The notes under the pieces: generated by a model
Seen by the model: the letters and a program-made list of their open reading frames with translations, nothing else
Told to the model about the DNA's origin: nothing
The model's database searches: none
Part shown: positions 5,523 to 6,215 of the stretch, one piece after another
Layout of the letters: every line of letters starts with the position of its first letter
Position numbering within the stretch: position 1 is the stretch's first letter
Position numbers and translations under genes: made by a program
Sequence record: PV691511.1
Source: Escherichia phage WPEC2
DNA: 64,000 nt
Reading direction: 5' to 3' (one strand)

Positions 5523-6215
5523 TTAAATAGCGGTTTCTTCGAAATCCGCCACATTTACGAGATTAATATTTTCAGATTTAGAAGTCAAGTTGTTTTCTGC
5601 AACAGATTTTTCTTCAGTATCCGCCTCGTTACCTGCCACGTTACGAGGTTCTTCTTCACCGTAGGGATTACCGAATTTCAAAAGATTGATTAATTCTTCT
5701 TTGGAGAAGTTTTCTAAATCATCATCTGTTAATTCAATAATCTCATCTTGTTCTTCAATAAATGTTTCACCACCAGAAAAAGCATCTCGCTTTTTAGCTA
5801 CTTCCATAGCCTGTTCTGGTGTTGCTCCTGCATCAAGAGCAGCTAAAGCAAAGTCTGACCCGCTTCCTACCGCATAATATTCTTCATCAATCGGATATGC
5901 ACGTGTTGGGTTGTTACCTTCGTGCAGGAAAATACGTCCATCTGGATGAACAACAAGTGCAATAAACTCTTCATCTTCTTTATCTGGATCAGAGTGAATC
6001 ATCAAACCAGGGACAGCATCACGTGCTGCTTCGCACTGTAGATTTTGTTCAAACCATTGAAAGAAAGAAAGCACGGAGGTCAGACGACCAGCACCACCTA
6101 CAAGGTAATCTCCAATTTTTCGGACCTTTTTGAAATTAATAGAATCTACACGTCCACCAAAAGTTACCTTACCGTCACTCAAAATCTTATTTTTGGTCGC
6201 AATAATTGTCGTCAC
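5523..6215 (-). CDS. HslV/proteasome beta-type Ntn-hydrolase peptidase with acidic C-terminal tail
   Basis: N-terminus MTTIIATKN (Thr right after Met), GGAG and AVGSGSDFALAALDAG segments resembling HslV. Confidence 0.55.
   Translation of the reverse strand: MTTIIATKNKILSDGKVTFGGRVDSINFKKVRKIGDYLVGGAGRLTSVLSFFQWFEQNLQCEAARDAVPGLMIHSDPDKEDEEFIALVVHPDGRIFLHEGNNPTRAYPIDEEYYAVGSGSDFALAALDAGATPEQAMEVAKKRDAFSGGETFIEEQDEIIELTDDDLENFSKEELINLLKFGNPYGEEEPRNVAGNEADTEEKSVAENNLTSKSENINLVNVADFEETAI

Follow-up and report, generated by a model that had tools for sequence, protein, structure and literature searches.

The gene at positions 5,523 to 6,215 of the Escherichia phage WPEC2 DNA analysed here (sequence record PV691511.1; the whole stretch of 64,000 nucleotides is called the window in the following) encodes what is almost certainly a proteasome-family peptidase of the N-terminal nucleophile (Ntn) hydrolase type. 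The protein is not an orthologue of HslV. Judged by its features and by a proxy alignment, it appears to belong to an HslV-derived branch of phage proteins lacking helix H2 (the PPH/RPC type), and it carries a C-terminal two-helix hairpin followed by an acidic tail. The identification as such is correct yet already known, since it is present in PHROGs as well as in GenBank, where many records of nearly identical phages carry the labels 'HslV family peptidase', 'peptidase HslV family' or 'ATP-dependent protease subunit'. Furthermore, phage proteasome homologues without H2 have already been published (Fuchs et al., 2021). As a sequence finding, nothing is added to the existing annotation.

Fold, active site and the region of helix H2

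At the superfamily level the observation is far beyond chance, since the protein matches PHROG 1040 ('peptidase HslV family') end to end with an E value of 4.5e-63 and homologues are present in 235 phage records. Together with 46 fold matches in BFVD, these records show that phage-encoded proteasome homologues are widespread. The score for the Pfam family PF00227 (Proteasome), 25.6 bits, lies narrowly above the gathering score of 22.4. The best sequence matches in the PDB are all HslV proteins, with 1m4y reaching an E value of 4.9e-9 for the single sequence and of 6.6e-14 for the family profile.

The structure was predicted with AlphaFold as a monomer. Here, the model obtained from a 78-sequence alignment was used; a single-sequence model reached a predicted local distance difference test (pLDDT) score of only 39 and was set aside. 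The model displays a pLDDT of 84.6 and a predicted template modeling (pTM) score of 0.72, with residues 1-185 mostly above 90 and residues 190-230 disordered. It adopts the alpha-beta-beta-alpha Ntn fold, and in a Foldseek search against the PDB HslV ranked first with a probability of 1.0. A structure prediction with comparison to HslV had been named as a check in the initial annotation, with a fold other than Ntn-hydrolase as the refuting outcome; the prediction yielded the Ntn-hydrolase fold, and the proposal is therefore not refuted.

On the level of orthology, both HslV equivalog models of NCBIfam were missed. NF003964 gave 32.2 bits against a threshold of 137 and TIGR03692 gave 31.4 bits against 157.75, while the E. 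coli HslV control scored 303.8 and 288.2 bits, respectively. Of the original proposal of an HslV/proteasome-type peptidase, the assignment to the superfamily therefore stands, carried by PF00227, PHROG 1040 and the fold, whereas HslV orthology does not, given the failed equivalog models and the predicted loss of H2.

The active site was compared in a clade alignment with E. coli HslV, comprising 23 members that are 40-81% identical to the window protein. Thr2, Asp14, Lys30, Gly40/Gly43 and Ser118 are invariant in all 23, and in HslV numbering the equivalents of Thr1, Thr2, Asp17, Lys33, Gly45, Gly48 and Gly123-Ser124-Gly125 are kept without exception. The HslV-like glycine-rich segments noted initially correspond to GGAGR (residues 40-44), equivalent to GFAGG of HslV, and to GSGS (residues 117-120), equivalent to GSGG; both are invariant in the clade. 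The product begins exactly with MTTIIATKN, as had been read from the open reading frame (ORF), and the view that the Thr after the initiator Met is the nucleophile gains support from the invariance of this Thr in 23 of 23 members, the removal of the Met being presumed. The Thr directly adjoins the initiator Met both here and in the majority of relatives, therefore no propeptide is present. Taken together, the invariant active site suggests an active N-terminal-threonine peptidase.

An additional feature is the sequence Asp144-x-x-Ser147-Gly-Gly (window-protein numbering), which is invariant across the clade as well. It is part of the segment RDAFSGG, which resembles the RDxxSGG motif of 20S beta subunits and is absent from HslV; the HslV of T. 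maritima has a Cys in the column of Asp144. Because of this segment, eukaryotic beta5 subunits match positions 109-159 of the profile with an E value of 7e-10. We take the segment to be the counterpart of the Asp166/Ser169 second shell in 20S beta subunits. The residue list in PMC7468587 is consistent with such a second shell.

The most prominent departure from HslV lies in the region of helix H2. According to a DSSP assignment of the model, one long helix (residues 45-67) is followed by a predicted coil of 16 residues (68-83) at the place where HslV has H2, and the superposition of the model with HslV covers only 140 of the 171 HslV residues. Within this loop, Pro69 and Pro77 are conserved. 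Its net charge is between -2 and -6 in 23 of 23 clade members, compared to +2 for the segment of E. coli HslV. The pore positions follow the same trend, since Arg89 of HslV is replaced by Glu in 22 of 23 members, Lys90 by Glu or Asp in 22 of 23 and Arg83 is deleted, while the gating residue Leu88 is Asp in all 23 (the roles of the HslV pore residues are taken from PMC5777263 and PMC8665760). The C-terminus of HslU is accommodated in HslV by Phe54, Phe57, Ala79, Lys80 and Gln114 (PMC6429459). In the clade Phe54 is replaced by Leu and Gln114 by Tyr, Leu or Phe, and the columns of Ala79 and Lys80 are variable.

The initial annotation had considered that the peptidase may need a partner ATPase. 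This need finds no support, as no HslU-like gene is present in the window or within 6 kb of the related gene in 84 viral loci, and the pocket and pore residues are only partly kept. The tblastn search with E. coli HslU gave only chance-level matches in the window and no match in these flanking regions, and PHROG scans of the window's 20 largest ORFs revealed no AAA+ unfoldase. In a search of 50,697 phage records, HslU-like genes turned up mainly in jumbo phages of Erwinia and Salmonella and in contaminant records. Only four Escherichia records are among these matches, compared to about 60 records of the window clade, therefore these roughly 60 Phapecoctavirus records cannot be among them. Likewise, an all-against-all clustering of the neighbouring ORFs from 31 lineages revealed no gene with a broad linkage to the peptidase; PhoH and glutaredoxin are each found beside it in 5 of the 31, these being related large myoviruses. 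Taking the residues and the searches together, we consider it somewhat likely that the protein works independently of HslU.

A contrast with the jumbo phages that encode HslU-like proteins was dropped, since the genes next to gp118 of Erwinia phage Special G are not detectably HslV-like. In this phage, two genes of 179 codons each, gp119 and gp120 (L089, 4226-5312), lie directly 3' of the HslU-like ATPase gene, and no HslV likeness of their products was detectable by hhalign (probability of about 0.1).

C-terminal extension and genome context

A long acidic tail had also been described initially, and indeed residues 157-230 carry a net charge of -16. This charge is divided between the hairpin (residues 157-186, -7) and the disordered remainder (residues 187-230, -9). 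The isoelectric point of the tail is 4.05, that of the whole protein 4.3. The helices of the hairpin span residues 164-169 and 172-181 with a pLDDT of about 90. The hairpin is absent from HslV and from the phage homologues of about 140 amino acids (aa), and its motif [ST]xE..L..[FYM][ST][KR]E[EQ]L[LI] is kept by the whole clade and is also found in the HslV-like protein of Shewanella sp. phage 1/4 at 34% identity, where it reads 'SREQL..MSKDDIL..LFGK'. The remaining tail consists of 27% Asp and Glu, and its length and sequence differ between homologues.

Some relatives continue beyond the hairpin. The sequences P0061-P0063 and P0072-P0079, from metagenomes and from Klebsiella phage vB_KpM_FBKp34, have 90-190 extra residues after the conserved hairpin. 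In one type of extra domain the CxxC motifs are paired and the end is rich in W, another type is a helical module, both without a Pfam match; a Pfam scan of seven homologue tails with E values up to 10 gave no match. For residues 156-230, a phmmer search against 1.84 billion representatives returned only a chimera-like fragment and a chance repeat protein. The former is P0131, a metagenomic protein of 120 aa matching positions 5526-5615, in which the last 30 residues of the tail (97% identity) follow an N-terminal domain of unrelated sequence; it stems either from recombination or from a chimeric assembly.

Three further proposals for this region were considered. A role of the tail as a shared docking module is not supported, since no other protein family carries residues 156-230 in the phmmer search. 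A SAP/HeH DNA-binding motif is equally unsupported, as the hairpin has no Pfam match and a net charge of -7. Finally, a mimicry of the C-terminus of HslU, 'DEDLSRFIL', by the sequence 'DDDLENF' of the tail was rejected. This likeness is restricted to the closest relatives (others have TREQAEGY or TKEKAAEM), and the sequence is internal, whereas the HslU tail acts via its free C-terminal end (PMC6429459).

The limits of the gene agree exactly with those given initially, although it is read from the minus strand. Translation starts with a GTG codon at positions 6213-6215, as in E. coli hslV, and a strong AGGAGG-type site precedes the start in every clade locus checked. The start overlaps the TAG stop codon of the upstream ORF167 by one base (TAGTG), which suggests a translational coupling of the two genes; within the clade ORF167 always adjoins the peptidase gene. 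A candidate promoter inside ORF167 lies 94 nt upstream of the peptidase start, and a GC-rich hairpin with a TTCG loop is located just 3' of the stop codon. The promoter match of 11/12 is also present in L018 and L019 and is decayed in other clade members. Promoter and hairpin, both predicted, could delimit a small transcription unit. The coordinates are given in Table 1.

Table 1. Positions in the window of the peptidase gene, its parts and the genes discussed with it
Feature	Position	Strand	Basis
Peptidase coding sequence, 230 aa plus TAA stop	5523..6215	minus	ORF list, sequence, PHROG 1040, PF00227
Ntn-hydrolase core, residues 1-156	5748..6215	minus	
Catalytic codons Thr2 (mature Thr1); Asp14; Lys30	6210-6212; 6174-6176; 6126-6128	minus	
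Catalytic codons Gly43; Ser118; Asp144	6087-6089; 5862-5864; 5784-5786	minus	
Proline-flanked acidic loop VPGLMIHSDPDKEDEE, residues 68-83, at the place of HslV helix H2	5967..6014	minus	DSSP of model
Two-helix hairpin LTDDDLENFSKEELINLLKFG, residues 157-186	5658..5747	minus	Model helices and conserved motif
Acidic tail, residues 187-230, predicted disordered, poorly conserved	5526..5657	minus	pLDDT of about 48
Shine-Dalgarno sequence GAGGAGG, 7 nt upstream of GTG	6223..6229	minus	Read from sequence
Terminator-like GC hairpin TGCCCCTTCGGGGGCA followed by TTTCTT, beginning 6 nt past the stop codon	5502..5517	minus	Consensus scan and sequence
Candidate sigma-70-like promoter TTGACA-18-TAGAAT (11/12), inside ORF167	6280..6309	minus	Consensus scan
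ORF167, PHROG 14834 (unknown function), upstream	6215..6718	minus	No Pfam match
PhoH-like P-loop ATPase, not an unfoldase	6751..7560	minus	PHROG 170, E 1.2e-64
Terminase	50857-52932	plus	
Portal	53034-54599	plus	
Major head protein	56730-57731	plus	

Over the 3.6 kb around the gene, the identity is 100% with Escherichia phage WPEC1 and reaches at least 99% with 56 phAPEC8-like phages. This group corresponds to the genus Phapecoctavirus, myoviruses of about 150 kb. The 90% cluster of the protein holds 77 member sequences, one of which occurs on 393 contigs and lists GenBank AFU62667.1. Three related records are deposited as phages of other hosts, namely Acinetobacter, Klebsiella and Campylobacter (OP562383 and MH252123, at least 99% identical, and MG065639, 67.7% identical), and these host labels look doubtful.

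The gene order lysozyme, PhoH, ORF167, peptidase, ORF144 and DNA methyltransferase is kept down to 60% identity of the peptidase. The neighbour ORF144 has no Pfam match and is found only in a PHROG of unknown function. A corresponding order of endolysin, small ORF, PhoH and HslV-like gene is present in Shewanella sp. phage 1/4 (L003, 2309-4723), which could be a remnant of ancient synteny or point to a functional link with PhoH. The surrounding minus-strand array encodes dTDP-sugar enzymes, NrdAB, ThyA, exonucleases, DNA ligase, NrdD and a helicase. Within it, genes for a dTDP-4-dehydrorhamnose reductase-like protein and a 3,5-epimerase lie beside glutaredoxin (8470-9872, minus strand) and represent a phage-encoded dTDP-sugar pathway. 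After the rhamnose epimerase gene, the otherwise identical phage WPEC1 (161 kb; L001, 17373-27601) contains about 10 kb of small hypothetical ORFs; the window runs here (9872-10703) almost directly into NrdB/NrdA, which indicates a large indel. Ten clustered tRNA genes (Met twice, Arg, Ser, Asn, Thr, Gly, Gln, Pro and Ile) are located at 30763-32688 on the plus strand.

A natural deletion bears on the importance of the gene. In phage VEcB (MT932211; L088, 2165-2968; protein P0066), residues 1 to about 113 of PhoH are fused in frame to the peptidase from about residue 63 to its end. The deletion removes ORF167 as well as the half of the peptidase with Thr1, Asp17 and Lys33, so that VEcB, an isolated phage that is viable, represents a natural triple knock-out of PhoH, ORF167 and the peptidase. 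This makes the gene an accessory one, at least on the host of VEcB.

Proposed mechanism and alternative explanations

Considering all of this, we regard it as fairly probable that the protein is an HslV-derived, H2-less phage Thr peptidase to which a hairpin and an acidic tail have been added. Here, the host methionine aminopeptidase would expose Thr1, and the subunits would form a single or double ring around an acidic pore. Activity would not require HslU, as proposed for the Betaproteobacteria proteasome homologue (BPH), because parts of the HslU pocket (Ala79/Lys80, Gln114) and the gating residues Leu88, Arg86, Arg89 and Lys90 are gone or charge-reversed. Hairpins and acidic tails would point outward and recruit substrates or partners. 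In the proteasome-homologue fold the C-termini face away from the ring (PMC8665760), which makes an outward role in recruitment or interaction the most economical interpretation. Expression would occur together with the early/middle genes of nucleotide metabolism and replication. The role would be an accessory one, neither essential nor that of a head-maturation protease, and would probably consist in the turnover of unfolded or basic polypeptides of host or phage. The charge pattern hints at such basic or unfolded polypeptides as substrates; any specific target, such as the host or defence proteins suggested initially, would be speculative and could be named with low confidence only.

Several points weigh against this interpretation. 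The evidence for a missing H2 comes from an AlphaFold prediction of the monomer, in which the loop has a pLDDT of only about 76, and the early/middle timing is deduced from the gene position only. Phe57 of the HslU pocket is kept in 23 of 23 clade members and Phe54 is replaced conservatively, which would leave room for a docking of host HslU or another AAA+ protein. In addition, the stretch searched directly for a partner spans 64 kb, and the genome is about 150 kb long. BPH, the nearest analogue working without an unfoldase, is inert in vitro (PMC5777263), and no experimental study of any phage proteasome homologue, including the PPH type, was found in the literature.

The conserved part of the pocket leads to the alternative that the peptidase docks to host HslU (or ClpX/ClpA), resulting in a hybrid ATP-dependent protease with redirected specificity, possibly via the acidic tail. 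In line with this, the closest solved relatives in sequence and structure are HslVs, Phe57 is invariant with Leu in place of Phe54, the E. coli host encodes hslVU and cellular HslV alone is nearly inactive and requires HslU (PMC6429459). However, H2, which bears the pocket residues Ala79/Lys80 and the pore residues Arg86/Arg89/Lys90, is replaced by the acidic loop, Gln114 is changed to Tyr, Leu or Phe, the HslV equivalog models failed and members of the wider family are carried by phages of many different hosts without an ATPase gene linked to them. Furthermore, the column of HslV Lys28 never contains Lys in the clade; this residue is presumably a carboxylate partner, although a literature check of its role found nothing. 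Such a hijacking of the host ATPase is thus considered unlikely. The HslV-like N-terminal half could also belong to a decoy or poison subunit, which joins host HslV or titrates HslU and thereby shuts down host HslUV, with catalysis being irrelevant. Phages do inhibit host proteases, for example T4 by PinA, which acts against Lon. Nevertheless, a pure decoy would have no need of the full catalytic set, which, including the second-shell residues Ser118 and Asp144, is invariant between members of only 40-50% identity and recurs in the relatives of about 140 aa. Moreover, the ring-contact elements, H2 and the H3-H4 loop, are unlike those of HslV, and a decoy function appears highly improbable.

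Classical rings may not be able to form without H2, and connectase is an example of a proteasome homologue that acts as a specific ligase (both PMC8665760). Together with the constant, start/stop-coupled adjacency of ORF167 within the clade, this would fit a sequence-specific processing enzyme or transpeptidase that is not self-compartmentalising and acts on one target, possibly the ORF167 product; we judge this very unlikely. A function as virion or prohead maturation protease is brought up by relatives of about 140 aa encoded beside portal and terminase genes in some small viral contigs (L062, L072). For the window gene this is extremely improbable, since the terminase-portal-head-sheath module begins at 50.8 kb, about 45 kb away and on the opposite strand, which counts against a role in capsid maturation, and the gene lies among replication and nucleotide-metabolism genes and is truncated in the viable phage VEcB. 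In the contigs themselves (L062, 432-6449; L072, 6091-9895) the direct neighbours of the PPH-type gene are portal, terminase or major-capsid-like genes. A prohead protease is usually encoded at such a place, and this branch could have a morphogenetic role. Decidedly unlikely, finally, is a more far-reaching version of the favoured HslU-independent peptidase, a viral mini-proteasome without unfoldase, in which H2-less subunits would form a ring around an acidic pore and the acidic tails, facing outward, would bind basic host proteins, such as nucleoid-associated or DNA-binding defence proteins, early in infection.

Should the H2-less peptidase prove active with no unfoldase, it would offer a minimal, tractable system for studying gating and activation of the HslV/proteasome fold, and it would be a non-structural protease carried into the cell by a lytic phage. 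Its targets could reveal a step of host takeover or counter-defence. The mini-proteasome version, if true, would be the first case of a proteasome-family enzyme whose role in virus-host conflict is defined.

Comparison with known proteasome homologues

A bioinformatic catalogue of proteasome homologues has been presented by Fuchs, Alva and Lupas (2021; PMC8665760). Here, PPH comprises proteins of about 140 aa from tailed phages and their hosts, termed 'the first true viral member', and RPC comprises PPH-related proteins with a C-terminal extension, all of them reported from genomes of proteobacteria; phage sequences are also included in two other clusters, AAH and CPH. All four are placed in the HslV/BPH-related group I, for which a diversification from HslV was suggested, and PPH and RPC were singled out as lacking H2 (PMC8665760). 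Published representatives are WP_042125023.1 for PPH and WP_140207863 for RPC (Fuchs et al., 2021).

As a proxy for PPH, eleven phage homologues of about 140 aa were aligned by hhalign with the window family, giving a probability of 99.9 and an E value of 3.2e-37 over the whole core. The value for E. coli HslV was 8.8e-10, which is only roughly comparable, as HslV was used as a single sequence. The window protein shares with PPH the phage origin, the lack of a propeptide, the missing H2 and the conserved Thr1/Asp17/Lys33/Gly set. In contrast, its core is longer (about 156-158 aa compared to about 140), with a longer helix H1 and the acidic loop, and with 230 aa, made up of the core and an extension of 72-74 aa, it exceeds the size of about 140 residues given for PPH. 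The conserved hairpin and the acidic disordered tail are not present in PPH.

The missing H2 and a C-terminal extension, here the hairpin and tail of residues 157-230, are shared with RPC. RPC has been published from proteobacterial genomes, whereas the window clade is borne by lytic phages; in bacteria and archaea, a search of one genome each of 185,579 species found only a contaminant contig of 425 bp.

HslV (ClpQ) is 27% identical to the window protein. It has H2 and a basic pore cluster where the window protein has the acidic loop and charge-reversed Arg89/Lys90, its H3-H4 connection is longer, and it has neither the C-terminal addition of 74 residues nor the RDxxSGG motif. HslV works with HslU as its partner, whereas no HslU is co-encoded with the window protein (64-kb window and 84 viral loci). 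Compared to the 20S beta subunits (archaeal beta and eukaryotic beta5), the window protein lacks a propeptide, an alpha partner, H2 and the S12/H5 elements.

BPH (PDB 5ovs/5ovu) differs in keeping H2 and in having a long pore loop. In addition, a Ser nucleophile is discussed and heptameric double rings are reported for BPH in its original description, whereas the nucleophile of the window protein is Thr. As an orphan with an acidic pore loop, BPH is nevertheless the closest functional analogue of the window protein.

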